From NCBI GenBank assembly GCA_045114455.1, contig JBGUKN010000072.1, positions 945 through 64,944 of the forward strand: a stretch of 64,000 bases of DNA. Reading direction: 5' to 3'. Of the stretch, positions 38,334 through 53,035 are shown piece by piece. Origin of the DNA: Victivallales bacterium. GTDB taxonomy: Bacteria > Verrucomicrobiota > Lentisphaeria > Victivallales > UBA1829. The notes beneath the pieces are model-generated. The model saw nothing but the letters and a program-made list of their open reading frames with translations, did no database searches and was not told the DNA's origin. Made by a program: the position numbers and the translations under genes. How positions within the stretch are numbered: the first letter of the stretch is position 1; each line of letters begins with the position of its first letter.

Positions 38334-38557
38334 TTCTTCCCATCCGCGCATACCGCCGCTGGATCACCCCTCTGTTTCCCCCGTGCTGCCGTTTCACGCC
38401 GACCTGCTCCCAGTACGCGATCGACGCCATCCGGATTCATGGACTCCTGCGAGGTTTCGCGTTGAGTTCATGGCGGATTCTCCGATGCAATCCCTGGTCC
38501 CCGGGCGGATATGACCCAGTTCCCCCGAAACGCCGTCCAGGAAGGAATAACGAGTGA
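38330..38557 (+). CDS. yidD: Membrane protein insertion efficiency factor YidD
   Basis: The GTG at 38330 overlaps the rnpA stop (GTGA). [34 protein letters not shown]...[17 protein letters not shown]. Confidence 0.9.
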
Positions 38558-40389
38558 ACTTCAAATACGACAAAGACACTGTCATCATCGTGGTGGTCGG
38601 CTGCCTGCTCATGGGCGGCTGGCTGCTCTATATGCCGAAATATCAGGCGAAGCGCACCGCGGAATATCAGAAAATGCTGCAGACCACGCAGCAGAATGTT
38701 CCCGCGCAGCAGACGGAAGCGGGCGCAAGTTCAACCTCTGCTCAACAGGCGGTCATCCCGGATGCCAATGCCGGACAGACGCTTCAGCCCGCTTCGGAAA
38801 CTGCCGCCGAAAGCATCCATGCACTGAAAGAAACGAAGACCGTCGTCCTTGAAAACAGCCTTTTCAGCGTGACGGTCGACGGCCTGACCGGTTCGATCTC
38901 CAGCGCCAGGCTGCTGGATCCCCGGTACAAACTGAAAGACTCCGGCGACGCCATCGAACTTTTCCGAGAGGGCGCGTATCGCACGTTCGAACTGAAGGCA
39001 AACCCGGCGCTCATCCCCATTTCGCTGGACGTCCGTGAAAACGGCCCGCTCTCCGCGGAAGTCGTCCGCACGTTCTCCAACGGCCTGAAGCTCGTCCAGA
39101 CATTCACCCTGCCGGAAGACGATTATCTCGTCTCCTGCAAATTTGCCTGGTCCAATCCGGCTTCCGCCGCGATCACGGTCGACGGTCTCGGCGTCCGCCT
39201 CGCCGGTCTGCCGCAGGTCAAGGACCTCACCGGAGACAAGGTCTACAGCGAACGCCTGAATGTCGACTACTGCAAGGTCGGGAGCAGCATGTGCGACTCC
39301 GCCGATCCGCAGGTCAAATCCCAGGAGAAATTCGACAAAAAGACCACCTGCGAATCACCGGTCGCCTGGATCGGCTCCTCCAACAAGTATTTCGCCTCGC
39401 TCCTCTTCGCCGACGAGGCAAGACCCTTTGCGTCCGTGAACGGCGAACGCATCTGGAGGTTCCCGGCCGGCAGCAACAACGAAAAAGACCTTTACGCCGT
39501 TCCCTCCATGACAGGCAATTTCGGAACCGTCTCGTTCGCGCCCGGCACGGAATCCGTGAGTTTCGCATTGAAGACCTACTGCGGACCGAAGGAAATGTCC
39601 CGCATCCGCGCGCTCGGCTCCTCCGTCATGGGCATGATGCACATTTCATATTACTCGTGGTTCGAATTCATCGCCCGTCCCATGGTCCTGCTCCTGAACT
39701 GGCTGAAGGGCCTTTGCGGCTCCTACGGAATCGCGATCATTCTGCTCACGCTCATCGTCCGCATCCTCTTCTGGCCGGTCACGCAAAAAGCCAACAGCTC
39801 CATGCGCCGCATGCAGAAGCTCCAGCCGAAGATCAAGGAGCTCCAGGAGAAGTACAAGGAAACTCCGATGGACACCCCGGACGACACAGCCCGCAAAAAA
39901 GCCGAGCTCAACCAGAAGATGATGGAGCTCTACCGCGTCGAAAAGGTCAATCCCGTCGGCGGTTGTCTCCCCATCCTTCTGCAGATCCCCGTCTTCATCG
40001 CGCTGTATTCCGCGCTGGATTCCGCCGTCGAACTCCGCAATGTGCCGTTCCTGTGGTGTACGGACCTCTCCAGGCCCGACCTCGTCGGCCCGACGCTCCC
40101 GTTCGCCCTGCCCTTCATCGGCCAGGTCGGTTTCCATCCGCTCGTGATCGCGATGACCGCGCTCATGGTCCTGCAGCAGAAGATGACGCCCTCCGCGGCC
40201 GACTCCACGCAGCAGAAAATGATGATGATCATGCCGATCGTCATGCTTTTCATGTTCTACAACCTTCCGTCCGGCCTGACGCTTTACTGGACGGTCAGTC
40301 AAATATTCAGCATCCTTCAAATGAAATACGGGCAAATCGCCGCGAAGCGGGATGAAGCGCGTCAGACAAGTAAACCGCAAAAGGCATAA
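38554..40389 (+). CDS. yidC: Membrane protein insertase YidC
   Basis: The GTG at 38554 overlaps the yidD stop. A large periplasmic domain is followed by [29 protein letters not shown]...[20 protein letters not shown]. Confidence 0.93.
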
Positions 40390-40415
40390 AAACGCCCGAA
40401 ACCCCGGAGAACACA

Positions 40416-41255
40416 ATGGAACTTGAAGAAACCGCCGCGGCCGGCAACCAGGCCATGGAAAATGCAGATGCGGCAGCAGAAACCGCAAAAGAAACAGTAA
40501 CGACCGATGAGATCAAGGCCGTCCCGATGGAAGACGGCGCCGCCGAAACCAACAACGGCGGATTTGACAGAATCGACAAGGAAGAAGCAGCTCCGCAGCC
40601 GCGCGGCGAACGTCCGCGCAGAACGCCCCCGCCGGTCAAGCCCGCCTCGGCGGAGTCCATGGAGGAAGCGAAGAGCGTCCTCGCCCATATGTTCGATTTC
40701 CTCGGTATCGACGCCAACGTCCGCGTGGAAAATAAACCGCGCTCCGTCAACCTCTACGTCTCCACCGACGACCCAGGCCGCGTGATCGGACATCACGGCA
40801 AGACGCTTGAAAACCTTCAGCTCATCGTGAACCGCATCATGCAGAAGACCGATTCGGAATTCCCGAAACTCTATATCGACATGGACGGCTCCCGCGAACG
40901 CCGTGCAGAACGCCGCGCGGAACGCGCCGAACGTCCTGAACACGGCGGCGAACGCCGCATGGAACGCGGCGAACGCTCCGGCCGCAGAGAATTCCGCGGC
41001 GAACGCAGAGACCGTTTCGACGGCGGCCGCAGATCGTCATTCTCCCATGACGACGTCCTGCGCCAGCAGGCTCTTGACGCAGCGAAGGAAGTCCACCAGT
41101 GGGGCGCCCCGAAGACACTTCCTCCGATGAATTCGCATGACCGCCGGATCGTCCACATCACGCTGGAAAGCGATCCCGCTCTGACGACCAACAGCATCGG
41201 CGACGGGGAAAACCGTTCCGTCGTGATCGCGCTGAAGGAAGAAGTCAACGCCTGA
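40416..41255 (+). CDS. jag: Jag/KhpB-like RNA-binding protein (KH plus R3H domains)
   Basis: GRVIGHHGKTLENLQLIVNRI (KH) and MNSHDRRIVHITL (R3H), with an Arg/Glu-rich linker. In the conserved position after yidC. Confidence 0.85.
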   Translation: MELEETAAAGNQAMENADAAAETAKETVTTDEIKAVPMEDGAAETNNGGFDRIDKEEAAPQPRGERPRRTPPPVKPASAESMEEAKSVLAHMFDFLGIDANVRVENKPRSVNLYVSTDDPGRVIGHHGKTLENLQLIVNRIMQKTDSEFPKLYIDMDGSRERRAERRAERAERPEHGGERRMERGERSGRREFRGERRDRFDGGRRSSFSHDDVLRQQALDAAKEVHQWGAPKTLPPMNSHDRRIVHITLESDPALTTNSIGDGENRSVVIALKEEVNA

Positions 41256-41300
41256 ATTCGATTCGCTTCTTTTTCGAAGCGATCAAACTGATTCAGGTTA

Positions 41301-41332
41301 AACCGCCGTATCGGAAAACGGCGGTTTTTTTG
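41301..41332 (+). terminator. Rho-independent terminator after jag
   Basis: AACCGCCGT / ACGGCGGTT 9-bp stem, 8-nt loop, then TTTTTTTG. Confidence 0.75.
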
Positions 41333-41399
41333 TATTCCGGAATACTTTTTTCTTCAAGTTGAAACACGGGATGAAAGCTTTGCAATAGTAATCCTGAAA

Positions 41400-41582
41400 G
41401 AAGCCAAATCCTGAAAAAACAAGCGTCTTAACACGTTCATATATATAGCATTAAGAAATCTCAGGAAAGAAAAACAAAAATAGAAAAAACTCAATTCAAA
41501 AAAACTTCCGAGAAAAAAAGCCGCTTCGTTATCCGAAAAAACAAAAAAATCAAAAAAAAAACATGCCAACGCAAAAAAAAAG
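41400..41582 (+). other. A-tract-rich, low-GC spacer at the left edge of the polysaccharide island
   Basis: Many A5-A10 runs on the plus strand (e.g. GAAAAAAC, CAAAAAAAT, CAAAAAAAAAAC, GCAAAAAAAAAG). Only a spurious 71-aa minus-strand ORF (41354-41569) overlaps it. Confidence 0.7.
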
Positions 41583-41610
41583 TTGATTTTTCCCTGTTGG
41601 GGGCTATATT
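41583..41610 (+). promoter_or_regulatory. Sigma-70-like promoter of the STAS/polysaccharide operon
   Basis: TTGATT (41583-41588), 16-nt spacer, TATATT (41605-41610), followed by the 5'-UTR hairpin GTCTCC-ACACGG-GGAGAC. Confidence 0.5.
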
Positions 41611-41669
41611 ATACTAAATATTGTCTCCACACGGGGAGACGGAAACTGCTAATCAGGAAGAAAACATCC

Positions 41670-42008
41670 ATGGAAATTTCCAACTTTGAAAACGACGGGA
41701 TAGAAATCATCCAGATCAAAGGGCATCTTTCTGCAGAAAATGCGGAAACTCTCCGGTCCAAATTTCTCGAACTGTTCGCCACCCAGCGGAAATTCGTGTT
41801 TGATCTTTCCGAGATGGAAAATCTGGACAGCACGGGGCTTGGAGCTCTGGTCTTCTGTCTGAAAAGCTGTACGGAATTCAACGGAACATTGATTCTGGCG
41901 AATTTAACGCAGCGTGCAAGAATGATTTTTGAGATCACGAAGGCGTACCGCATTTTTGATATTTACGACGAGCTTGACGAGGCGATCAAGGCAGCCCGCG
42001 AAGCATAA
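41670..42008 (+). CDS. STAS-domain anti-sigma-factor antagonist (SpoIIAA/RsbV-like)
   Basis: The ATG at 41670 gives a 112-aa protein. FDLSEMENLDSTGLGALV carries the conserved DS(T)G phospho-serine motif. ARMIFEITKAYRIFDIY. Confidence 0.85.
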   Translation: MEISNFENDGIEIIQIKGHLSAENAETLRSKFLELFATQRKFVFDLSEMENLDSTGLGALVFCLKSCTEFNGTLILANLTQRARMIFEITKAYRIFDIYDELDEAIKAAREA

Positions 42009-42014
42009 CCCCCG

Positions 42015-42028
42015 GCGGACGCGTCCGC
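42015..42028. repeat. Perfect 14-bp palindrome GCGGACGCGTCCGC just after the STAS stop
   Basis: Read directly. It is followed by an A-run, not a T-run, so it is not a classic terminator on the plus strand. Confidence 0.4.
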
Positions 42029-42081
42029 ACAAAAAGAAACCGCATAGGAGATGTGGGGATTTTGAACTTGGAGGCTGAACA

Positions 42082-42879
42082 ATGAGGCAGAACCGCCCGG
42101 AATCAGCAAGACAGGCACCCCAGGCCATGAAGCGGGATGAACAAACATCCGGCTTCGGTGCGTCTTTCCTGCAAGGCGACATTCCGTTTCTTGCCGGAAC
42201 GAAGTCTCCCTGTGCCAAACGATATGCGCTTATTCGCACGCGCAGCAAAAAGCTTTTCAAATTTCTTTCCATCGGTTGCAATCGCGTTTTCAAGCGCTGG
42301 ATGGATATCTGCGGCAGTTTGACGGCAATAACCCTGTTGTCCCCTGTTTTCGTCTTCGTCGCAATCTGGCTCAAACTCGATTCGCCCGGTCCGCTCATCT
42401 ACCGCCAGATCAGAGTCGGCCAATACGGACGCCCGTTCTATTTCTACAAGTTCCGCTCCATGTACATTGACTCCGACGCCCGTCGACTCGCGCTGGAAAA
42501 GGAGAACGAGTCCAAAGACGGCGTGATTTTCAAGATGAAAAACGATCCCCGGATCACAAGATGCGGTCGCTTTATCCGCAAATACAGCATCGACGAAACG
42601 CCGCAATTCTTCAATGTCCTTCTTGGTGACATGAGTCTGGTCGGCCCCCGGCCGCCGCTCCCCTCGGAAGTGGCACAATACACCCTTGACGATCGGAAAC
42701 GCCTGGATATTCTGCCGGGAATCACCTGTATTTGGCAGATTTCCGGGCGCAGCGACATCCCGTTCCGGGAACAGGTCGTCCTTGACAGGGAATACATCCG
42801 CGGGCAGGGCTTCTGGAAAGACGTCCTGATCCTGTTCAAGACGATTCCCGCGGTGATATCGGGAAAAGGAGCGTACTGA
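42082..42879 (+). CDS. Undecaprenyl-phosphate sugar-phosphate transferase (small bacterial sugar transferase, priming enzyme)
   Basis: KRWMDICGSLTAITLLSPVFVFVAIWLKLDSPGPLIYRQIRVGQYGRPFYFYKFRSM, DETPQFFNVLLGDMSLVGPRPP, PGITCIWQISGRSD. Confidence 0.9.
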   Translation: MRQNRPESARQAPQAMKRDEQTSGFGASFLQGDIPFLAGTKSPCAKRYALIRTRSKKLFKFLSIGCNRVFKRWMDICGSLTAITLLSPVFVFVAIWLKLDSPGPLIYRQIRVGQYGRPFYFYKFRSMYIDSDARRLALEKENESKDGVIFKMKNDPRITRCGRFIRKYSIDETPQFFNVLLGDMSLVGPRPPLPSEVAQYTLDDRKRLDILPGITCIWQISGRSDIPFREQVVLDREYIRGQGFWKDVLILFKTIPAVISGKGAY

Positions 42880-42880
42880 C

Positions 42881-44305
42881 ATGACAAAAGCGATCCTTTT
42901 CTGCTCAACACACGAAAACGCATGGCTGAAAGAGTATTTCCCGAATCACCCGGTTTATTTGCTTCCGTTCGCAAACAAACCAGCCATTGAGTATATTCTG
43001 GACTATTGTTTCCTTTGCGGGATCCATGATGTTAGAATCGTATCCGACGAAGAATCCGAAGCTCTGCGCGCCCAATACCGCAACGGCGAAATGCTGAGCA
43101 TGAACATCTCCTTCGGAAGCGTGAACTCCGCGTGTTCGGTCAGACGCGTCATCCTGCAAAACAAAGCTTTCTGCAGGGGCAGCGACATCCTGTTTTTCTC
43201 CGGCCTTTTCCTGCCCGAATATGACAAACGGATGCCGAACGAGCCGGGCATCGGCGCGGATGAACTGAAGGGATGCGTCTATGAAAACGGAAGCGCAGCC
43301 TGGTATCTGATCGGGCGGAACAGACTGGACAGCCTCCCGGACAAATGGGACGGTTTTCACGACGAAACTCCCGTCAGCGGCCAACCGGTCACGGATATTC
43401 TCGGCTATTACCGCCACAACATGCGTCTGGCCGGTCCCGACATCGAAAAATACAATTTGCCCGGTTTTCGTGAAGGTAAGAACAGTTACGTGGGGTATGA
43501 CGTTCAAATCCCGGGATCGGCCAGGATCCGACCGCCCGTAATTCTCGGAAACGGGATACAGTTTGGACGCAAAGCGCATGCCGGACCGAATGTGATTATC
43601 GGGGACAACTGCATCATCGACAACGGTACGACGATCCGGGACTCCATTGTTTTCGGCAACACCTACATCGGACGTGACCTGGAGATCAACGGGAAGATCT
43701 GTTGCGCAAATTGCATCATCGACCCGCAAACCGGAACCAGCATCAACCTTGCCAATCCGTCTGTCATCTCCGAAATGGAACCGGACGAATATGAAAAAAA
43801 ATCTTTTCTTCAACGTTTTCTGGCAGTTGTGCTGCTGCTGTTCCAGACGCCCCTCTATCTCCTGCTGAGGCCCTTTGTGGAGTTTCATTTTTCCCTGACG
43901 GAGTGTCTGACCGGCAGAGGAAACACTCGCACACTGGCATTGGACGGATATGCACTGCCGCGGGAAAGCATTGCCGGAAGTCTGTTCCACAGGTTCACAC
44001 TGAACAAATACCATCTTCTGCCGTATGCGGCAGCCGGGAAAATGCGGCTGGTCGGAAGCCATCTGCTGGAAGCGACCGAACACAACGAGCAGTTCATCCG
44101 GGATCTTCCAGGGTATGCACCCGGCATTTTTTCCTACAGCGAATACCTCGGCCATGAAAATGAGCCTTATCAATTTGAACTTGACGAGCAGTATTATGCA
44201 TATGCTATGAACTGCTGGTTTAACATCAAGATTTTGGCGGGAATCCTGCGGCGCAATCTGAGACGGGAAAACCGCAGCCTGCAACAGAGAGGAGCTATCG
44301 AATAA
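42881..44305 (+). CDS. Fusion protein: degenerate nucleotidyltransferase-like N-domain, hexapeptide-repeat (LbH) domain, TM segment, and degenerate sugar-transferase-like C-domain
   Basis: LLPFANKPAIEYILDYCFLCGIHDVRIV resembles sugar-1-P nucleotidyltransferases, but the GxGTRL loop is replaced by CSTHENAWL. The LbH run is ILGNGIQFG...IIGDNCIIDNGTTIRDSIVFGNTYIG. The C-terminus parallels the neighbouring transferase: MRLVGSHLL versus MSLVGPRPP, PGIFSYSE versus PGITCIWQ, and NKYHLLPY in place of DETPQFF. Confidence 0.6.
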   Translation: MTKAILFCSTHENAWLKEYFPNHPVYLLPFANKPAIEYILDYCFLCGIHDVRIVSDEESEALRAQYRNGEMLSMNISFGSVNSACSVRRVILQNKAFCRGSDILFFSGLFLPEYDKRMPNEPGIGADELKGCVYENGSAAWYLIGRNRLDSLPDKWDGFHDETPVSGQPVTDILGYYRHNMRLAGPDIEKYNLPGFREGKNSYVGYDVQIPGSARIRPPVILGNGIQFGRKAHAGPNVIIGDNCIIDNGTTIRDSIVFGNTYIGRDLEINGKICCANCIIDPQTGTSINLANPSVISEMEPDEYEKKSFLQRFLAVVLLLFQTPLYLLLRPFVEFHFSLTECLTGRGNTRTLALDGYALPRESIAGSLFHRFTLNKYHLLPYAAAGKMRLVGSHLLEATEHNEQFIRDLPGYAPGIFSYSEYLGHENEPYQFELDEQYYAYAMNCWFNIKILAGILRRNLRRENRSLQQRGAIE

Positions 44306-46395
44306 TGATTTTAACCGACCATGAAGATCCCGCCATCGAAGCAACCGCCGACAATTCCACTCCCACGGCAGAACAAAGATCTCTTCCCGTTTTCGTACAG
44401 ATTATTTATCTCTTCAAACGGGATATCTGGTGCTGGATCAATGCAGTCCAGAAAATGTGGTGGCTTTTCATCCTTGCTCCGCTGCTGTTCGCCTGTGCCA
44501 CTTTCTTTTTCAGAACCATGACGACCACCAACGTGTATGTGGCAAACTGCGGATTGATCCGCCAGGCCGTCGACACGCGGGACGGCGTTCTTCCTCCGGG
44601 ATATACGAATGTTCAGAGATCGATCATTATGAATCTTTTCAAGACCCGTGCAGTTTTGGAGGAGACCATCAAGCGGCTCAGCCTGCCGTATTCGTCCGAA
44701 CAGCTCTACAACAGCATTACCATCAAGGTGGAAAAGAATTCCGATTACTACGTTATCTCGGCTTCTTCAAAAGACCCGACGATTTCCGCCGCTTTGGCCA
44801 ATACCCTGGCCGACGTTTTCATTGAAGAATACAAAAAACTGATCCGGCGAAATCTGGAAGATCTGAACGACAGCTATGTGAGAACTCAGAATGAAATGGA
44901 AAAATTGCTGGCCGAGCAGGATGAGAAATTGAAAAAAATCAACGCCGAAAACAATCTGACAACCATTGAGAACGATATCGCCTTCAACAATCAGAGACTG
45001 CTTCAGATTGAAGACCAGCTGACTCGCAAATCGTCCTCGCTCGATTCCGCGAAACAGGCTCTGTTCGAGCTTCAGGGAGAACTGGTCAACACCCCGGAAG
45101 AAGTCGTGTCAAAAAGAGTAACAAGCACAGCAGTGGAAGACGAACTTTTGCGTGCGGAGAATCTGTTGCTTGAATACGAACAGGTCTATGCAAAAAACAA
45201 TCCCCTTTTGATCCAGCAGCGGGAAATCGTCAAAAAACTTAAGGCTGAAAAAGATCGGCTGAAAGAAGAAGAAGAAGAAGGCTCGAACGAAATCAATAAA
45301 CATGTCGAGGTCACCCGCAATCCGGCATATACACAAATTCAGGTGGCCATAGCCGCAAAAAAAGCCGAAATCTCCTCCCTTACCAACGATATCAAGCTCA
45401 ATAATGACAATGCGATTCAGCTGCGTGCGCGCCGCGAACTTCTGGCCGCGCTTCAGCCGACTCTCCGTCAGCTCGAAACCGATATCCAGCAAACGAAGAC
45501 CCAGCTCAACAACACGAAAGTCCAGATCACCACGATCAACAGCTTTTTGAGCCGCTCTTTCTCCGACATCTCCATTCAGGAACTTGCGAAAACACCCAAA
45601 GTCCCCCTCGGACGCAAACGCGGCATCTGGACTGTCGTCGGATTCATACTCGGAACCTTTTTGGCCTTTTCCATTACTTTCGTGTGCGAAATGTTCAACC
45701 TGACAGTTCGCTCCAACGTTGATATTGAACAGGCCCTCGGGATCAGAATGCTCGGAATGATCCCGCTTCTGGATCAGAAGCATCGCGCGGACTACTACAG
45801 TGCGCTGCAGACAATGACCAGTAATGGAAAGCTTTTCTTCACCCATGCATCGCCCGAGCATCCGGGTCTGATTGTATTCGCTCCGGACAAACGAACCGAT
45901 CAGGATGAAAAGATTCTGGAAGAATTCTGCGAAACGCTGAAAGTCCGCACGGGAAACAACTACGTCGTCATTTCTCCGATCAAAGAGGAGGACTTCTCCA
46001 TGAAACAGATGCCTCTTCTTATCAACGACTATTTATATCAGTTCACGGACACGGCGCCAAAACCTGGAAAAGACCATAAGGTTTTCTTCAGGCTGGACGA
46101 CCTTTCCTTTGTTTCGCCTCTTTCGGACGAACAGGTCCAGCGGATAAGAAATGCATATCAGTCCAAATCCATTTCGCTTATCATATGGGATCTTTTCGAG
46201 TTTGAACAGCATAGACAGCTTTTTGCGGAAATTGCCCGCAACGCCGATCTTACGGTCATTCCGATGAAATATGCACAGACTTCGAAAGTGAATATTTTCC
46301 GAATACTCCAGTTCCTGAGGTCTTTCCAGGTCAAAAATATTTTCGGATTCCTCCATAACGTCAATAACAAGCATTACAGCAAGGTGACATTATGA
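44305..46395 (+). CDS. Polysaccharide co-polymerase (Wzc/GumC-like, PCP-2a architecture) with a degenerate C-terminal kinase-like domain
   Basis: TM1, Wzz-like region, long coiled coil, TM2 (IWTVVGFILGTFLAFSITFV), then a P-loop-fold-like domain. That domain has VFAPDKRTDQDEK where Walker A GxxGxGK[ST] is expected, and there is no C-terminal Tyr cluster. The ATG overlaps the upstream stop. Confidence 0.75.
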   Translation: MILTDHEDPAIEATADNSTPTAEQRSLPVFVQIIYLFKRDIWCWINAVQKMWWLFILAPLLFACATFFFRTMTTTNVYVANCGLIRQAVDTRDGVLPPGYTNVQRSIIMNLFKTRAVLEETIKRLSLPYSSEQLYNSITIKVEKNSDYYVISASSKDPTISAALANTLADVFIEEYKKLIRRNLEDLNDSYVRTQNEMEKLLAEQDEKLKKINAENNLTTIENDIAFNNQRLLQIEDQLTRKSSSLDSAKQALFELQGELVNTPEEVVSKRVTSTAVEDELLRAENLLLEYEQVYAKNNPLLIQQREIVKKLKAEKDRLKEEEEEGSNEINKHVEVTRNPAYTQIQVAIAAKKAEISSLTNDIKLNNDNAIQLRARRELLAALQPTLRQLETDIQQTKTQLNNTKVQITTINSFLSRSFSDISIQELAKTPKVPLGRKRGIWTVVGFILGTFLAFSITFVCEMFNLTVRSNVDIEQALGIRMLGMIPLLDQKHRADYYSALQTMTSNGKLFFTHASPEHPGLIVFAPDKRTDQDEKILEEFCETLKVRTGNNYVVISPIKEEDFSMKQMPLLINDYLYQFTDTAPKPGKDHKVFFRLDDLSFVSPLSDEQVQRIRNAYQSKSISLIIWDLFEFEQHRQLFAEIARNADLTVIPMKYAQTSKVNIFRILQFLRSFQVKNIFGFLHNVNNKHYSKVTL

Positions 46396-47447
46396 TTTTC
46401 AAAGCCTCTCGTTTTCTGCGTTTTTTCCTGCCTGCCGTCTCCTTTGTCATAACTGCATGCAATACTACTCCGTTCGGAGGAATCGCCGTTCCCAGCATGA
46501 CATCCGTTGAACCCAAACAGGACGGGGATGCTTATGCCATTCAGGAGGAATTGAAAGCGCTGCATACCGTAAATACCACCCCTTATATCATTCGTCCCGG
46601 AGATACGTTCCAAATGTCCGTCTATAATCAGCCGACTCTCACCACAAGTGTGCTGATTGCACCGGACGGAACGACCAGTCTTCCTCTGATCGGCATTTTG
46701 AAACTCAGCGGAATGAACATGGAAGACGCCATGAATTTGATAGAAAAGAAGTTTTCCGCCTATTTGAAGTCTCCATATGTCACTTTGGCTCCTTTGTCGG
46801 TAAGCGGTTACTATTTCACGATTGCGGGCCGAGTCGTGAGACCCGGCAACTACACGGTGTCCCTCGGACAAACCAAGATGCTTGATGCAATCGCTCTTTC
46901 CGGCGGTTTTCAAACGGGGTCACTTAACGGCGACACGGTCGAGCTCGCCGATCTGGACAACGCCTATATCAAGCGCGACGGGAAAAAACTGCCTGTAGAC
47001 TTCAGAAAACTTGTTTATGAAGGAGACGATCTGCAAAACATTCCTGTTTTGAACGGGGATTATATCTATGTGCCGTCGACGATCAATGGGTCCATTATTT
47101 TCCTCGGGGAAGTCGGACGGAACACATATGTCGGGTTCTCGGAAGGAATGACGCTGTTGCAGGGACTTTCCTACACGAACGGCTTGAATACAGCCTCATA
47201 CAGTTCCATCATTCGCATTATCCGCGGCGGCCTGAATAACACTGTCGTTTATACCGTTGATGTCGACCTGATTCTGAAAGGAAAGATGAGGGATTTCAAG
47301 CTGAATGCGAACGACATCGTTTATGTACCGCAAGACGGGCTCACAAAATGGAACCTGATGATCAAGAAACTCCTGCCGACACTTCAGTTCTTCAATCTGC
47401 TGGCCGGTCCGTTCGGATCCAATATACGCGGGTTTTTCGATCTTTGA
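46392..47447 (+). CDS. Polysaccharide export outer-membrane lipoprotein (Wza-like: Poly_export plus SLBB domains)
   Basis: Lipobox AVSFVITAC. YIIRPGDTFQMSVYNQP...IAPDGTTSLPLIGILKLSGMNMED. The ATGA overlap with the upstream gene suggests translational coupling. Confidence 0.85.
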   Translation: MIFKASRFLRFFLPAVSFVITACNTTPFGGIAVPSMTSVEPKQDGDAYAIQEELKALHTVNTTPYIIRPGDTFQMSVYNQPTLTTSVLIAPDGTTSLPLIGILKLSGMNMEDAMNLIEKKFSAYLKSPYVTLAPLSVSGYYFTIAGRVVRPGNYTVSLGQTKMLDAIALSGGFQTGSLNGDTVELADLDNAYIKRDGKKLPVDFRKLVYEGDDLQNIPVLNGDYIYVPSTINGSIIFLGEVGRNTYVGFSEGMTLLQGLSYTNGLNTASYSSIIRIIRGGLNNTVVYTVDVDLILKGKMRDFKLNANDIVYVPQDGLTKWNLMIKKLLPTLQFFNLLAGPFGSNIRGFFDL

Positions 47448-47482
47448 TATGAATCACGGGGGCATTGCAGGGGAAAAGCCAT

Positions 47483-49072
47483 ATGCTTAAAACCGTTGAA
47501 GTTTTGTTCTTTTTCCTGTTCTTTCTGCCTTTCCTGACAGCATTGGCCTGGATATTTCCGTTTCTCCGGCACGTTTACTTTACAGGAATGTTTTTTTTCA
47601 CCTGCAAAGAGATTTCCTTCGGCATCATGACGATTATGTGGAAAGGGACGGCACGCGCCTATACGTTCACGGCCGTATTCCTTTTTGCTGTTCCGCTGTT
47701 TTTCAGTATGGTCTTGGACTGGAAGACGAAGGTACGGTTTTTTCCTCCCGGTTCCATATTTTACTTTCTTTACTTCCTGTCCGTTCTGATTTCCGGAGTA
47801 AACGCCGTCCACATGCATCAATGGGGATTTGAAGTCTACAAAATGCTTTGGATGTACTTCGTCTTCATAGCGGCATTCAACTATCTGAACCATTGCAAGG
47901 ACCTCATTTTTCCCATTTATATGGTATGCATTATCCTGATTTATCTTTTTCTGGTTGGCTTCGACCAGAAATACAGGCTGGGAAGCATTCAAGTCCATTC
48001 GACATTTCCGCATCAGAACTCCCTGGCGCTGTATCTGGAGCTCCTGGGGCTTCTTTCGTTTGGCGTTCTGCTGAACGAGCATATGAGCAAATTGCTGTTC
48101 TGTCTCTGTCTGTTTGCTTTCGGCAGCTCCGTCCTCCTGATCCTTTTTACCTATTCCAGAGGAGCCCTGGTCACTTATTTCGGAGGTATTGCCATTGTTT
48201 GCGCGGCTTCCATATTGTTCAATGGCTTCTCCATTAGGCGGCTGACTCTTCTTCTGATCGGAATGATTGTCCTGCTGTGTGTGGTCGGTTATGCCTTGCC
48301 GAACATCATCAAACGGTTCACCGGTGCGTCGCCGGCTTCCAAAAACACAAGAATCGCGCTTGCCATCGCATCCAAAAAAATGGCAAATGATTATCCTTTA
48401 GGAGTTGGAGCCAACAATTACAGCGAGTATTCCGGATACAACTACGATTATGCCATTCAGGAGAACTATTCTCCACGGAAGGAACGTGGCGGAATCGTGG
48501 AAACCATCTACCTGCTTGTCGCGGCGGAATGCGGATGGTACGGCCTCGGCCTTCTGCTTCTCTGGTTTTTTTATTATTACTTTTCTCTCATCGTAAGCAT
48601 GTTTGTCCTTCGGAAAAAGCCATGTTCCGGCATCGTGATCGGACTCTTCGGCGGCCTTACCTGCATTTACTGGCATTCCACGCTTGAATGGAGCATGAAA
48701 CAGCCTAACAACTTCTCGGAACAAATGGTCATTTATGGGCTGATAGCCGCCATTGCAGTCAACCGCAAAAAGATCAAAGCCGCTTATCAACGACAGCTTG
48801 CCCGGGAAGCGGAACAGGAAAAAAAGAAAAAAAAGAAGGACGAAAAATCAATGGCAAGCCAATATTCGCTGCCGCTTCTGCCGGGAAGACAGTTCATGCT
48901 TTCTGTGGACACTGATAGTCTGCACTCTCAGATTCCTCCGACCATGAAGCCTGTCGACACGGCGCCCGAATCGTCCGGTGCTCAGGATGGACAGGAGCAG
49001 GTTCCTTCCATAAATCCCGCCGACGTGGATCTCGAATCGTCCGATGCTCGGGATGGACAGGGGCAGGAATAG
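47483..49072 (+). CDS. O-antigen ligase/polymerase-family (Wzy_C) membrane protein with a charged repeat-containing C-terminal tail
   Basis: More than 10 TM helices and FTYSRGALVTYFGG, typical of the Wzy_C loop. The tail has K-rich QEKKKKKKDEK and two ESS(G/D)A(Q/R)DGQ repeats. A TTG at 47465 is an alternative start. Confidence 0.75.
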   Translation: MLKTVEVLFFFLFFLPFLTALAWIFPFLRHVYFTGMFFFTCKEISFGIMTIMWKGTARAYTFTAVFLFAVPLFFSMVLDWKTKVRFFPPGSIFYFLYFLSVLISGVNAVHMHQWGFEVYKMLWMYFVFIAAFNYLNHCKDLIFPIYMVCIILIYLFLVGFDQKYRLGSIQVHSTFPHQNSLALYLELLGLLSFGVLLNEHMSKLLFCLCLFAFGSSVLLILFTYSRGALVTYFGGIAIVCAASILFNGFSIRRLTLLLIGMIVLLCVVGYALPNIIKRFTGASPASKNTRIALAIASKKMANDYPLGVGANNYSEYSGYNYDYAIQENYSPRKERGGIVETIYLLVAAECGWYGLGLLLLWFFYYYFSLIVSMFVLRKKPCSGIVIGLFGGLTCIYWHSTLEWSMKQPNNFSEQMVIYGLIAAIAVNRKKIKAAYQRQLAREAEQEKKKKKKDEKSMASQYSLPLLPGRQFMLSVDTDSLHSQIPPTMKPVDTAPESSGAQDGQEQVPSINPADVDLESSDARDGQGQE

Positions 49073-49101
49073 TATTTGAAAAACGTATCCGAGGAAGCCA
49101 G

Positions 49102-50256
49102 ATGAAGATCGCCGATAGAATGCACTGTACCGGATGCGGAGCCTGTGCGGATGCATGTCCGGCCGCCTGCATTTCCATGAAAGCATCGGAGGAAGGCTTC
49201 TGGTTTCCGGTCGTCGAGGAATCGCGATGCAGGGATTGCGGAATCTGCGGGACTGTCTGCCATGTTTTGAATCCTCCCGGAAAAAAAAGTCCGGAAAAAG
49301 CATTTGCCGCCTGGTCTTTGGATGAATCCGTACGAACGTCCAGTTCCTCCGGCGGCGTCTATTCCGTTCTTGGGGAATATATCCTTGAAAACGGCGGCGC
49401 AATCAGCGGTTGCCGTTTTGACGGGGACATGGTTCTGAAGCACGAACTGTGCGACCGGCCGGGCGGCACGGTTCACTTCCGCGGATCGAAATACGTTCAG
49501 TGTTTTACGGACGGAATCTACCGGATAATCCGTGACGAGCTTGCAAAAGGCAGAACGGTTCTTTTCACCGGTACGCCGTGTCAGGCCGCCGGATTGCGGG
49601 CCTATTTGGGGCGACCGTATGAGAATCTGATCGTCTGCGATCTGGTCTGTCACGGCGTCCCAAGCCAGAAGATATTCAGAAGCTACCTGAAACGGCATGA
49701 TCTGTCTCCTGATCCAGATCGTTCGGTCATCGCGTTCCGCGACCTGAACGGCTGGGGCGACTTTTATATTCGGATCATGGACCGGGGCAATCTTCAATGG
49801 CACTCCGACGATGCGACGAACGAATACATCCGTGCATTTCTGTCCGGATACGATTATAATGAAGCCTGCTACGAATGCCCCTATGCCTGCATGGAGAGGA
49901 CAGGAGATCTGACGCTTGCGGATTTCTGGGGGCTCGGAAAAAGCATCCCCTTTGACGGAGACCCGTCGCACGGCTGTTCCCTGATTCTTGTCAATACGGA
50001 AAAAGGCGGAGACCTGCTTCAAAACGTGCGGGACAGGCTGTTCCTGGAAGAACGGACATTGGAGGAAGCCCGGCAGGGAAACGGCCAGTTGAGGGCGCCA
50101 GTGCCAAGACAGCCGATGCGCGATACGTTTTACCGGATGGACTGGGCAGGAATTGCACGCAAGATCAACTATGGAAATCCCTCCCCTCTCCGCAGGCTGC
50201 TCCGTGTCTGCAAACGGACCGTTCTGAATATACTTCCGTGCGGAAGCAGAAAATGA
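49102..50256 (+). CDS. FrhB/FdhB-like Fe-S protein (coenzyme F420 hydrogenase beta-subunit family, polysaccharide-locus type)
   Basis: N-terminal CTGCGACADACP and CRDCGICGTVC ferredoxin motifs, followed by SSSGGVYSVL and GTPCQAAGLR, characteristic of the FrhB_FdhB C-domain. Confidence 0.7.
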   Translation: MKIADRMHCTGCGACADACPAACISMKASEEGFWFPVVEESRCRDCGICGTVCHVLNPPGKKSPEKAFAAWSLDESVRTSSSSGGVYSVLGEYILENGGAISGCRFDGDMVLKHELCDRPGGTVHFRGSKYVQCFTDGIYRIIRDELAKGRTVLFTGTPCQAAGLRAYLGRPYENLIVCDLVCHGVPSQKIFRSYLKRHDLSPDPDRSVIAFRDLNGWGDFYIRIMDRGNLQWHSDDATNEYIRAFLSGYDYNEACYECPYACMERTGDLTLADFWGLGKSIPFDGDPSHGCSLILVNTEKGGDLLQNVRDRLFLEERTLEEARQGNGQLRAPVPRQPMRDTFYRMDWAGIARKINYGNPSPLRRLLRVCKRTVLNILPCGSRK

Positions 50257-50310: not shown

Positions 50311-51525
50311 ATGAAAATACTCTTAGGCGGCGTGCCGTTCGGCTGCGACAATATCGGCGACGAGGCAATCCTTGCCTCCGTAATCGGTCTCCTGCGCGAG
50401 ATATACCCGGATGCAGAACTCATCGTAAGTACCGGTGACCGCACCGGGACGGAACGCAAATTCGGGGTGAAGACCGTCCCTCTGTACGGATTTGACCCTG
50501 CGGCGCCCGCGGCGCGTCTGACCGAGGCGCTGGACGGCATCAATTTCTATATCTGGGCGGGTGCTACCGGACTGTCCGATTATCCGGAAATGGCCTGCAC
50601 ACTGCTTGAAACCGCTCAGGAAAAGGGCGTCCGGACGATCGTCTGGAATGTCGGGATGAACGATGTTTTCAATCCGGCTTTCTTCTCGCTTCACGGAAAA
50701 AAGAAAACGCTGGCGAACGCGGTAAAAACATGTTTCGGATTCGACTGGGAAAAACGCTGGATCGAACGGCGTGTCCACGCTATCCGGCAGAGATTGGCAC
50801 GCACCCTCGGACGCTGCGATCTGATCGTCCTCCGCGACCGGAAATCTCTGGAAGTGCTCCGCTTGTGCGCGCCGTTCCCGGACGCCGTCGCCGGAGCCGA
50901 CACCGCCATCCTGCAGAAACAGTGTCCGGCGGACGCTCTCCCCTGGAACGCATCTGAACAAGAAGTTTTCCGGTCTGCCTCCGCACGGATGGCCGTCTGC
51001 GTGTCGGAGCAGAACCGGATCCGTGAATTCGACCGGTTTACAGGCTGGCTCGACGGCATCCTGGAAACGCATCCCGGACTGCTTGTCGTGACGATCCCGA
51101 TGAACCCGAAAACGGATTTCCGGGTCATGGAGGAGATGAAGCGGCGCTCGAACTATCCCGACCGCATCCTGTCGACCCGCTTCCTTGAGCCGGAGGAAGT
51201 CCAGGCCGTCGCGGCGGACTGCTCCGTCATCGTCAGCAGCCGTCTGCATCTGCTAATCCTGGGGCTGAACAACCTGGTGCCCGGCGTCGGCATCGCACGC
51301 GGAAGCAAAATCGAGTATTTCCTTTCCCGGTTCGGCCTTACGACCGCGGGGACCACCGACGATCTCGACCTTCCCCGCCTGACCGAATCCGTGGATTGGG
51401 CGCTGACGCATCAGGACGAATTCAAACAAAGCGCCGCATCCGTCCGTGCCGGTTTGCTGGAAGACCTGAAACGGGCGGAAACACTTTTGAAACAGACATT
51501 GGAAAGCCCGCGTCCGCCCCGGTAG
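50311..51525 (+). CDS. Polysaccharide pyruvyl transferase (CsaB/WcaK family)
   Basis: NIGDEAILASVIGLL at the N-terminus and VSSRLHLLILGLNNLVPGVGI near the C-terminus. AAGGAG SD. Confidence 0.8.
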   Translation: MKILLGGVPFGCDNIGDEAILASVIGLLREIYPDAELIVSTGDRTGTERKFGVKTVPLYGFDPAAPAARLTEALDGINFYIWAGATGLSDYPEMACTLLETAQEKGVRTIVWNVGMNDVFNPAFFSLHGKKKTLANAVKTCFGFDWEKRWIERRVHAIRQRLARTLGRCDLIVLRDRKSLEVLRLCAPFPDAVAGADTAILQKQCPADALPWNASEQEVFRSASARMAVCVSEQNRIREFDRFTGWLDGILETHPGLLVVTIPMNPKTDFRVMEEMKRRSNYPDRILSTRFLEPEEVQAVAADCSVIVSSRLHLLILGLNNLVPGVGIARGSKIEYFLSRFGLTTAGTTDDLDLPRLTESVDWALTHQDEFKQSAASVRAGLLEDLKRAETLLKQTLESPRPPR

Positions 51526-51569
51526 ACGCACCTCGTTCTTCCCCGCATTCCAATCCCGGATGCATCAAC

Positions 51570-52937
51570 ATGGCACTCTTCGGAAAAATCATTGCCTGGA
51601 TCCTGCGGAACATCCTCACCATCGCCGCGATCACCGTGATCCTGTGTCTGCTTTCGCCCGGGATCCGCGTCGCTAAGGACAACGCCGCGAAACTGACGGA
51701 ACAGCGTGACGCGCTTCTCGACGGCATCCGGTCGGTCGAGGACGAGATCGCGAAAACGAAGGAATCGCTCGAAAGCCGCCTCTCCATGCTGGACCACTGG
51801 CGCGAACAAAGACGGGAATGTCTGGAAAAGATCGATGCCCTGCCCAACGCCTGGCTGCATCCGATCGACCACTGGTCCGAATACACCCGGCTCACAACGG
51901 AACAGAAACGTCTGGAACTTCAGATCGACACGCTGGAATCCACGATCGCGCGGTACAGGGATTCCCTCGCCCAGCTCGACAAAAACCGCCGGATGATGAT
52001 CTTTCAGCTCGACAGCGTGACGCAGTCCATTACGGAATCCGTCTCGCGGGAGTGGAACAGAAACGGCCTCAGGATCCTGCTGTTCACGATCTGCTTCGTG
52101 CTGCTCACGCCGCCTCTCTGGCTCGTGTTCATGTATTACTGCGTCGCCGCGCTCGTCGAGAAATTCCCGCCGATCCGCATCAGGCTCAAAGGCGACGACG
52201 GCGGGCACGAGCCCGTATTCCACCGCTCCGCGCGCAGCATCACGTTTTCGATCCCGGAAGGCCGCACGTTCTATCTGCGGGCGCAGGGCGGCGACTGGGG
52301 CAAAGAACGCCGCGATGTCGTCTGCCGGACCAAATTCATGTGGCGCTGGGGAGCGCCGCTCGTTTCGATCGCGTCGGACCTCGTGGAGCTCCTCGCATAC
52401 CGCAGCGAACCGGGCGCGAAGACCCCCGGCCAGATCAAGATGACCTCGCCGAAGGACGACGAGGTGTACATTCAGCAGATCGAGCTCAACGGCGGTCCCG
52501 GACTCGTCCTGACGCCGCGCCATGTGATCGGCCTGACCGATGACGTGGAGGTCCGCACGGTCTGGAGCTTCAAGCTCCACAACCTCATTTCCATGCGCCT
52601 GCGCCACATCGTTTTTTTCGGCACGGGCACGATCTTCATCATCGGTGGACGCGGCATCGACGTCCAGCGGATCGAGCCGGGTTCCAGCGCGGTCCACAAG
52701 ATCGAGGACGGCGTGCTCGTCGGCTATGTGCCCGGCGCGGCGTATTCTCTCTGCCGCACGCAGACCTTCTGGGCGTATTTCCGCGGGATGACCTCGCTGC
52801 TGGACTACAAGCTCTGCGGCGGCACCTTCCTCACGCAGAACCTGGTCGGACGAAGCGAAAAGGAAGTCCTCGGAAGCGGCCTCGACCGGTTCCTCTCCGT
52901 CCTGCTGAACGGCATCGGGAAACTCCTCGGATTCTGA
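51570..52937 (+). CDS. Membrane protein: N-terminal TM, coiled coil of about 140 aa, TM hairpin, beta-rich C-terminal domain (AIM24-like?)
   Basis: MALFGKIIAWILRNILTIAAITVILCLL, heptad-like LTEQRDALLDGIRSVEDEIAKTKESLESRL, and LRILLFTICFVLLTPPLWLVFMYYCVAALV. The C-terminal FFGTGTIFIIGGRGIDVQRIEPGSSAVHKIEDGVLVGY resembles the AIM24/DUF124 pattern. No SD was seen. Confidence 0.5.
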   Translation: MALFGKIIAWILRNILTIAAITVILCLLSPGIRVAKDNAAKLTEQRDALLDGIRSVEDEIAKTKESLESRLSMLDHWREQRRECLEKIDALPNAWLHPIDHWSEYTRLTTEQKRLELQIDTLESTIARYRDSLAQLDKNRRMMIFQLDSVTQSITESVSREWNRNGLRILLFTICFVLLTPPLWLVFMYYCVAALVEKFPPIRIRLKGDDGGHEPVFHRSARSITFSIPEGRTFYLRAQGGDWGKERRDVVCRTKFMWRWGAPLVSIASDLVELLAYRSEPGAKTPGQIKMTSPKDDEVYIQQIELNGGPGLVLTPRHVIGLTDDVEVRTVWSFKLHNLISMRLRHIVFFGTGTIFIIGGRGIDVQRIEPGSSAVHKIEDGVLVGYVPGAAYSLCRTQTFWAYFRGMTSLLDYKLCGGTFLTQNLVGRSEKEVLGSGLDRFLSVLLNGIGKLLGF

Positions 52938-52969
52938 ACCGCCGCGTGTCTTTCCGGCTCTCTGTTCGG

Positions 52970-53003
52970 CGCACCCTGTTTTTTTGAAAAAAACAGACGT
53001 GCG
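52970..53003. terminator. Inverted repeat, possible bidirectional terminator
   Basis: CGCAC-CCTGTTTTTTT-G-AAAAAAACAG-AC-GTGCG. The T and A runs are inside the stem. Confidence 0.3.
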
Positions 53004-53007
53004 GATA

Positions 53008-53035
53008 TTGAAAAACAACCCGAAAAACGTATATT
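53008..53035 (+). promoter_or_regulatory. Sigma-70-like promoter for glmM
   Basis: TTGAAA (53008-53013), 16-nt spacer, TATATT (53030-53035). Confidence 0.45.

Follow-up and report, generated by a model that had tools for sequence, protein, structure and literature searches.

A fusion of nucleotidyltransferase-like, β-helix and PglC-like folds that lacks canonical catalytic signatures is a candidate regulatory subunit of exopolysaccharide initiation in Victivallales and other bacteria

GMPPA, the γ and ε subunits of eIF2B, KONJAC (KJC), GalF and GlgD are catalytically silent paralogues of nucleoside diphosphate (NDP)-sugar pyrophosphorylases that regulate a partner. Here we describe a protein from a Victivallales bacterium that resembles this group in its first two modules and ends in a third with the fold of a monotopic phosphoglycosyl transferase (PGT). 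Its gene lies on the + strand of a 64,000-nucleotide stretch of DNA, hereafter the window (assembly GCA_045114455.1, contig JBGUKN010000072.1, positions 945 to 64,944), behind the gene of an intact small PGT and close to that of a STAS protein. Control of PGTs that start exopolysaccharide (EPS) synthesis has been described in other bacteria. All4160 of Anabaena sp. PCC 7120 is a STAS–Bac_transf fusion that is inactivated when Alr3423 phosphorylates Ser74 and is restored by HenR, a receiver–SpoIIE phosphatase; All2285 and Synechocystis XssP are likewise STAS–Bac_transf fusions, which are rare outside cyanobacteria (PMC13555669). In M. xanthus, direct protein–protein contact with EpsW~P activates the PGT EpsZ (PMC12802240), and the large PGT WbaP dimerises and carries a regulatory cytosolic domain of unknown function (DUF) in cis (PMC10942596). 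For SypA and HmpV, which are STAS-only proteins, the targets are unknown (PMC8256260).

The protein studied here, the target, is organised as follows (positions are those of the window).

42881..44305, + strand: target gene, ATG start, 474 aa, candidate pseudo-enzyme fusion of three modules
42881..43465, + strand, residues 1–195: module 1, sugar-1-phosphate nucleotidyltransferase-like Rossmann domain without the catalytic signature
42902–42928, + strand, residues 8–16: CSTHENAWL in place of GxGTRL
43466..43756, + strand, residues 196–292: module 2, left-handed β-helix (LbH) of hexapeptide repeats (Pfam LbH_EIF2B 6.5e-11)
43757..43801, + strand, residues 293–307: flexible, poorly conserved linker, with pLDDT (predicted local distance difference test) values below 50 at residues 293–301
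43802..44269, + strand, residues 308–463: module 3, PglC-like monotopic PGT fold (hhalign; Foldseek to PglC 8g1n/8e37)
43805–43876, + strand, residues 309–332: hydrophobic helix of module 3
44003–44008, + strand, residues 375–376: dyad position, reading N-K

An earlier note, made from the letters of the window, had proposed a three-part fusion in which both enzyme-like ends look catalytically dead, and the open reading frame (ORF) and all the peptide strings it quoted lie where it had placed them. Besides CSTHENAWL at residues 8–16, these are LLPFANKPAIEYILD..GIHDVRIV (27–53), the hydrophobic segment FLAVVLLLFQTPLYLLL (313–329), NKYHLLPY (375–382), MRLVGSHLL (388–396) and PGIFSYSE (414–421); the neighbouring PGT (42082..42879) contains KFRSM, DETPQFF, MSLVGPRPP and PGITCIWQ.

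The window protein on its own gave a weak N-terminal match and no Bac_transf match, so that family profiles were required; residue counts given here refer to an alignment of 227 full-length relatives. For module 1, the NCBIfam model rmlA_long matches the window protein alone (E 7e-8, residues 23–106). The Pfam scan gave no match of this protein to PF00483 (NTP_transferase), and two relatives, P0109 and P0102, exceed the 21.2-bit cut-off of that model with 28.7 and 28.5 bits. When a profile of 25 relatives is searched against the Protein Data Bank (PDB), it matches 8x7s_B at 1e-20, RmlA chains at about 1e-8, the ε and γ subunits of eIF2B, and GlmU, while the single sequence as query returns merely weak N-terminal matches (E ~0.01). 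Nucleotidyltransferases bind the phosphates of the nucleoside triphosphate with a G-x-G-[TS]-R loop and with the lysine of the P-K that follows. At this place FCSTHENAWL...HPVYLLP of the window protein aligns with AAGKGTRVRP...PKPMIP of 8x7s_B; a GxGTR loop is present in 0/227 relatives, whose consensus here is C-P-V-R-G-N-A-W, and the P-K lysine is missing at the aligned position of the family alignment. Trp15 is found in 178/227, and N32-K33-P34 and E37 are further conserved, non-catalytic residues of the pocket. The metal-binding Asp of these enzymes belongs to a G-D motif, as in ‘LGDNIF’ of RmlA; at the position made equivalent by sequence alignment, G108 is kept in 204/227 and the next residue is L, F, P or Y, with Asp in essentially none. 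A literature search on tlr0611 found nothing.

Module 2 is the sole part of the window protein detected by Pfam (LbH_EIF2B, E 6.5e-11, residues 200–283; Hexapep, 4.6e-5), and the Hexapep match recurs in 25/25 relatives tested. Its nearest matches by Pfam and Foldseek are LbH domains without catalytic function, those of eIF2B-ε, GMPP and AGPase. LbH acyltransferases of the GlmU C-terminus, PglD and LpxA type have a conserved catalytic His at the subunit interface; no column of residues 196–292 reaches 25 % His among the 227 sequences, and an active acetyltransferase is ruled out by the lack of a conserved His. The linker that follows has a mean column conservation of 0.39, the lowest of all segments.

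The relationship of module 3 to PGTs becomes clear at the level of profiles. A pairwise BLASTP comparison with the adjacent PGT gives a marginal match (23 % over 97 aa, E 0.001), in the register of the alignment made in the earlier note; hhalign aligns the C terminus of the family (residues 300–474) with an alignment of the neighbouring PGTs at a probability of 97.8 % and E 8.1e-13 over 156 columns. Query columns 9–164 are here matched to PGT residues 72–262, which is the catalytic core in full, membrane helix included. Pfam Bac_transf finds no match in the window protein even at E ≤ 1, below its 27-bit gathering cut-off; it matches 14/25 relatives, and in the four that pass 27 bits (30.2, 31.8, 32.3 and 34.9) the match is restricted to profile positions ~75–176. 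An AlphaFold2 (AF2) model of the C terminus alone (pLDDT 87.5, predicted template modelling score (pTM) 0.82) retrieves from the PDB only C. concisus PglC with significance (8g1n and 8e37, E 2–7e-5); the match to 8g1n_A (E 2.4e-5, TM 0.55) spans the full length, and the next has E = 2. The hydrophobic helix 309–332 is predicted to be a single, Pro-containing and possibly re-entrant helix as in the PglC fold; alignment position 325, which directly follows Pro324 of the window protein, is a Pro with 85 % conservation.

PglC has Asp93-Glu94 at the centre of its active site (PMC10186338). The window protein has Asn375-Lys376 at this dyad. Across the family, position 375 is D in 150, N in 46 and E in 12 sequences, and position 376 is K in 154, R in 53 and L in 15, with Glu in 0/227. 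The dyad Asp is kept in 120/138 distant relatives (<45 % identity), where a basic or hydrophobic residue follows it, and is replaced by Asn, Glu or Thr in the subclade of the window protein, to which loss of this Asp is specific. KFR(S/T)M, DPR and G-P-R-P, which we take to be the phosphate- and substrate-binding motifs of PGTs, are all visible in the neighbouring enzyme. In the hhalign alignment the KFRSM segment faces a gap and a β-hairpin in the family, and DPRIT aligns to LPRES, with the Pro alone conserved. GPRP reads GSHL in the window protein and G-N-x-(L/P) in the family, where G392 is invariant, N occupies position 393 in 152/227 and R occupies position 394 in 53/227.

A full-length AF2 model built from 82 sequences is confident (pLDDT 88.7, pTM 0.79), with disorder only at residues 293–301 and in the C-terminal tail. 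Foldseek matches it to 8x7s (E 9e-13), eIF2B γ/ε, GMPPA/GMPPB, VTC1–KJC2 and AGPase, all of them nucleotidyltransferase–LbH proteins and several of them catalytically silent regulators; 7d72, 8yre, 5b04 and 6i3m of the silent group are among the profile and Foldseek matches. Nucleotidyltransferase/LbH proteins alone were listed for the full-length model, and PglC became visible only once the C terminus was modelled separately. Since the active site of PglC is Asp93-Glu94 and the canonical residues are missing, the alignments support loss of both canonical chemistries, nucleotidyl transfer and phosphoglycosyl transfer, most strongly for the subclade of the window protein. Judged by its sequence, the target lacks the defining catalytic features of NTP_transferase, Bac_transf and the LbH acyltransferases, yet has their folds, and it is not to be classed in any of these three enzyme families. 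The structural and profile searches thus uphold the earlier note on the fold of each part, on the replaced loop, on collinearity with the adjacent priming transferase and on the lost dyad and KFRSM motif; catalytic signatures are missing at both ends, and the C-terminal similarity to Bac_transf is significant in profile alignments.

Its further statement that the domain combination corresponds to no described family also held, in that Pfam and NCBIfam returned partial, sub-threshold matches and no curated family. We found no paper describing the target family and none joining ‘phosphoglycosyl transferase’ with ‘pseudoenzyme’, and a 2024 PNAS survey of monotopic PGTs mentions no fusions, STAS domains or inactive members; as far as the literature found shows, a pseudo-PGT module is previously unreported. 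Public records label relatives ‘hypothetical’ or ‘NDP-sugar synthase/pyrophosphorylase’, and the label ‘NDP-sugar synthase’ is probably a systematic mis-annotation of the family.

The fusion is widespread and under constraint. A homologue search returned 114 relatives, the named ones from Lentisphaeria and Victivallaceae, and phmmer against 1.84 billion representatives found 130 clusters (50 % identity) at E ≤ 1e-30, nearly all of 460–480 aa and matched end to end; at E ≤ 1e-10 the family numbers ~600 members. Members come from at least five phyla, among them Lentisphaerota, Kiritimatiella glycovorans (WP_052881823.1), Spirochaetota, Desulfobulbaceae and Marinimicrobia; a genome scan with alignment A1, which reached Lentisphaeria only, added 22 Lentisphaeria/Victivallales loci. 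The ratio of non-synonymous to synonymous substitution rates (dN/dS) is ~0.15 overall and 0.09–0.24 in each of the three modules, with 0.18–0.24 in the PGT-like one. The + strand is the coding strand of the target gene, because more than 100 homologues have matching domains and because of this dN/dS. An antisense shadow ORF (42905..44344, − strand, 479 aa) covers the whole gene and is longer than the real ORF, and a longest-ORF gene caller would choose the wrong strand at 42905–44344; further wrong-strand ORFs occur in the window at 50323–51249 and 51411–53018. Greedy longest-ORF calling, which selects such shadow ORFs in this GC-rich window, was dropped.

Two genes precede the target.

41670..42008, + strand: single-domain STAS protein, anti-sigma-antagonist-like (Pfam STAS E 1.6e-18), with a phosphorylatable Ser in LDSTGLG
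42082..42879, + strand: intact small PGT of the Bac_transf/PglC type, with KFRSM, the DE dyad and GPRP present

In the ORF list the STAS gene begins at 41583, at a TTG 29 codons further upstream; homologues start MEISNFENDG, corresponding to the ATG at 41670, and the real protein in the window probably has 112 aa. The PGT matches Pfam Bac_transf over profile positions 1–178/179 (E 3e-63) and NCBIfam EPS_sugtrans (3.3e-84). Its TGA stop (42877–42879) ends 1 nt before the target ATG at 42881, with AAGGAG 10 nt upstream of that ATG. We surveyed 29 loci and the window by phmmer on six-frame ORFs. An intact small PGT lies directly upstream of the target in 27/27 Lentisphaeria and window loci that have upstream sequence, at gaps of 1–12 nt, and the gene of a single-domain STAS protein adjoins in 25/27. 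The motif D-S-x-G-L-G, with its phosphorylatable Ser, is invariant in an alignment of 24 STAS neighbours. In other phyla the order is PGT–STAS–target, with the PGT one or two genes upstream of the target in 6/6 PGT-carrying loci examined; STAS and PGT are separate genes at all loci, with no fusion.

Beyond Lentisphaeria the cassette often contains further signalling genes. A receiver–SpoIIE(PP2C)–HATPase_c_2 gene, whose product is built like P. aeruginosa HsbR and V. fischeri SypE, is present in L026 (Kiritimatiella), L027 (Spirochaetota), L029, L030 (Marinimicrobia) and L031, accompanied in L026 and L030 by an Hpt gene or domain, and L028 has instead an RsbW-like kinase (HATPase_c_2) and a second STAS. 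In L026, L027 and L030 the cassette stands alone, with no chain-length-determinant, Wza or Wzy genes nearby. Because of these stand-alone cassettes, the constant partners of the target are the PGT and partner-switching proteins, not the export machinery. The Kiritimatiella locus (L026:3585-10808, complete genome CP010904 of K. glycovorans) encodes, in order, Hpt, receiver–SpoIIE–HATPase_c_2, the small PGT, a 422-aa protein without a domain match, STAS and the target homologue (AKJ64493.1), followed by a radical-SAM/SPASM protein with a C-terminal SEC-C motif. The earlier note's guess of a scaffold or regulator gains strength from this adjacency, across phyla, to a genuine PGT and to a partner-switching STAS protein.

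Another PGT-like module was seen at some of these loci. The genes immediately upstream of the small PGT at L029:5172-6908, L032:4533-5789, L028:5534-6940, L020:3830-5164 and L021:2866-5235 encode WecG/TagA-family glycosyltransferases, each with a truncated, N-terminal Bac_transf-like module (profile ~91–178, best E 8.5e-11). It keeps the hydrophobic helix and the PGIF..W / EY..D..L motifs, while the KFRSM–DPR–DE segment is deleted. Its sequence suggests a second kind of dead PGT-like module, joined in this case to an active glycosyltransferase.

Perhaps the closest comparisons can be made with the silent pyrophosphorylase paralogues (GMPPA, eIF2B γ/ε) and with the partner-switching control of All4160, and by analogy with these two the target may work. 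The silent paralogues share with it a nucleotidyltransferase domain followed by a C-terminal LbH and degenerate catalytic loops, and are among its best matches. However, they are soluble, and their partner is an active paralogue that shares their fold or, in the case of eIF2B, other subunits, whereas the target has a PGT-like module predicted to be membrane-embedded and, as its neighbour, a PGT in place of an active pyrophosphorylase. The All4160 system resembles the target cassette in its STAS domain with a phosphorylatable Ser and its EPS-starting Bac_transf PGT, and the cassettes of other phyla also in its receiver–PP2C phosphatase and RsbW-type kinase; it regulates the initiating enzyme itself, post-translationally, as we propose for the target cassette. 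In All4160, however, the STAS is fused to the active PGT with no third protein, while the target loci have a separate STAS, a bare small PGT and an additional protein of 474 aa. From both precedents the target differs in being a separate, double pseudo-enzyme with a predicted membrane anchor and an unfused STAS. With PglC and WbaP (PF02397), its C-terminal 155 residues have in common the Pro-containing hydrophobic helix, the β-hairpin and the helical core, and are collinear over that core; unlike them, the target lacks the Asp-Glu dyad, the KFRSM Lys, the DPR Arg and the PRP Arg, and stays below the Pfam cut-off. The preceding 300-residue cytosolic module is not seen in the described small, large or bifunctional PGTs. 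The HsbA outputs are FlgM or a diguanylate cyclase, and we know of no protein of the target family in the SypE/SypA, HptB–HsbR–HsbA or HmpU/V/W systems. These systems, of V. fischeri, P. aeruginosa and N. punctiforme, respectively, resemble the cassettes of other phyla in combining an (Hpt–)receiver–PP2C–HATPase_c_2 protein with a STAS-only protein in a polysaccharide context (PMC8256260). EpsW–EpsZ, finally, is like our proposal in pairing a small signalling protein with an initiating monotopic PGT post-translationally, and unlike it in that EpsW is a receiver-domain protein, EpsZ is a large PGT whose homodimer is promoted, and no pseudo-enzyme adaptor takes part.

We propose, as what is on balance probable though by a narrow measure, that the target is a non-catalytic adaptor or regulatory subunit of EPS initiation that couples partner switching to the PGT. 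In this model, the PglC-like module would insert into the cytoplasmic leaflet via its hydrophobic helix and pair there with the intact small PGT, whose gene ends 1 nt upstream. The flexible linker would tether the cytosolic nucleotidyltransferase-like/LbH module, built like the silent regulatory paralogues GMPPA and eIF2B-γ/ε, as a docking or sensing platform. The phospho-state of the STAS protein would be set by the receiver–PP2C–kinase protein, whose gene belongs to the cassette in other phyla and presumably lies elsewhere in the genome of the window organism; in one phospho-state STAS would bind the platform and turn PGT activity on or off. The committed step of EPS synthesis would in this way be controlled post-translationally, with the target supplying in trans a regulatory cytosolic domain that small PGTs lack and that may be compared to the DUF of WbaP. 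The precedents of All4160, EpsW–EpsZ and WbaP make a mechanism of this kind, with a pseudo-enzyme as regulator, plausible. A more specific version, for which we would give somewhat less than an even chance, is that the family forms an unrecognised class of signalling adaptors that are the direct target of a STAS-only protein, heterodimerise with the small PGT and gate commitment to EPS in at least five phyla.

Several observations weigh against the adaptor model. No tblastn match to PP2C, HATPase_c_2, Hpt, HsbR-like or the L026 422-aa proteins was found in the 64-kb window, and the switch components of this genome, phosphatase and kinase, can only be inferred to be encoded elsewhere. The partners are also not absolutely fixed: STAS is absent from L020 and L021, which have instead a phosphoribulokinase/uridine-kinase-family P-loop gene (L020:7392-8024 and L021:7385-8029; Pfam PRK E 2e-26 and 2e-35) that overlaps the 3′ end of the target homologue. 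At L031:2407-8422, which encodes receiver–SpoIIE–HATPase_c_2, a GT1-type protein (780 aa, two such domains), STAS and the target homologue, no Bac_transf PGT was called and the GT1-type protein stands in its position. Lastly, retention of the dyad Asp beside Lys or Arg in most distant relatives leaves room for residual or altered chemistry.

An unlikely alternative, though compatible with the adaptor model and not mutually exclusive with it, is that the target is a GMPPA-like metabolite sensor independent of STAS, whose silent pocket would bind an NDP-sugar, uridine monophosphate (UMP) or another nucleotide and exert allosteric feedback on substrate or product, by inhibition or activation of the PGT, whether attached or adjacent. 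The closest structures include GMPPA/GMPPB with GDP-mannose and the VTC1–KJC2 regulatory complex, and W15, N32-K33-P34 and E37 could line such a pocket. The PRK-family gene that overlaps the target homologue where STAS is absent, together with UMP as a by-product of PGTs, hints at a link to uridine nucleotides, and the DUF of WbaP has been reported with a nucleotide-linked regulatory role (PMC10942596). Against this, the G-rich phosphate-binding loop and the P-K lysine are gone, so that nucleotide binding is not obviously preserved, and the almost universal adjacency of STAS points to protein-based signalling.

The STAS–PGT–target trio heads an EPS locus in the window, which continues with the following genes.

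44305..46395, + strand: chain-length-determinant (polysaccharide co-polymerase, PCP)-like protein, 696 aa (NCBIfam TIGR03007 1.5e-23, residues 132–494)
46392..47447, + strand: Wza-type polysaccharide export protein (Pfam Poly_export 3.7e-16, SLBB)
47465..49072, + strand: Wzy/O-antigen-ligase-like polymerase (Pfam Wzy_C 9.8e-11)
49102..50256, + strand: FrhB/FdhB-like 4Fe-4S protein
50311..51525, + strand: polysaccharide pyruvyl transferase

The start of the PCP-like gene overlaps the stop of the target, and such a gene occupies the same position in L001, L002 and L029. This arrangement, with the target between the PGT and the PCP, export and polymerase genes and with stop and start codons overlapping, would suit a passive membrane scaffold that organises the Wzx/Wzy machinery (PGT, chain-length determinant, Wza and Wzy) without signalling, as would the LbH domain, since LbH domains commonly mediate oligomerisation and are present in the AGPase, GMPP and eIF2B matches. 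We nonetheless give this reading rather little credence, given the cassettes of Kiritimatiella, Spirochaetota and Marinimicrobia, in which the receiver–PP2C–kinase, PGT, STAS and target genes have no PCP, Wza or Wzy nearby.

It is improbable that the target is an active but highly divergent enzyme, either a metal-independent, PGT-like one that uses Asp with Lys or Arg, or a nucleotidyltransferase with an atypical loop. The dyad Asp of distant relatives, the Arg at the PRP position in 53/227 and the public label ‘NDP-sugar synthase’ speak for it. Yet the window subclade has Asn, Glu or Thr at the dyad and its PGT-like module is still under purifying selection; the phosphate-binding KFRSM and DPR segments are deleted or replaced; GxGTR loop and P-K lysine are missing and the G-D Asp is found in essentially no member; and an intact PGT stands alongside in every Lentisphaeria and window locus with upstream sequence. 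That the gene is a decaying relic of a once bifunctional one, with no present function, would explain the loss of catalytic motifs at both ends but is effectively refuted by dN/dS and by full-length conservation in at least five phyla and ~130 clusters at 50 % identity, besides the confident three-domain AF2 model, conserved synteny and translational coupling.

Some further features of the locus may be recorded. The C-terminal extension of ~200 aa in the PCP-like protein (residues ~497–696, 45790–46392) has no Pfam or NCBIfam match, and a PDB sequence search for a degenerate bacterial tyrosine kinase (BY-kinase) in it gave chance matches only (estrogen receptors, E > 0.02). L001 and L002 have no FrhB-like gene between the Wzy-like gene and the pyruvyl transferase that comes after it. 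Immediately upstream of the EPS locus, window positions 38554–41255 encode the insertase YidC (611 aa) and a KH+R3H protein resembling Jag/KhpB; in L002, L013 and L014 a PAS–HisKA–HATPase_c–receiver hybrid kinase of ~1500 aa is found at the YidC/Jag position. GC content falls from ~0.60 to 0.46–0.53 across the EPS locus (window ~40000–50000), with a minimum at 46–48 kb, which would fit a polysaccharide gene cluster that has been exchanged horizontally or is compositionally distinct.

At the initiating PGT, scarce undecaprenyl phosphate and NDP-sugars become committed to a single glycan pathway, and the post-translational control of these enzymes is only now emerging, with EpsW–EpsZ in 2025 and All4160–HenR in 2026. 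The targets of STAS-only proteins of the SypA/HmpV type have been unknown for more than 10 years, and the cassette described here is a testable link between partner switching and the PGT step; the family occurs in rumen and gut Lentisphaeria, and K. glycovorans, with its complete genome, is usable for experiments. The target adds a candidate pseudo-enzyme derived from the monotopic PGT fold, of which we found no earlier report. If the adaptor model is true, it would give a first molecular answer on the target of STAS proteins in polysaccharide loci, and the PglC fold would have been recruited as a non-catalytic membrane docking module, a role that the truncated PGT-like modules linked to WecG would also fit.

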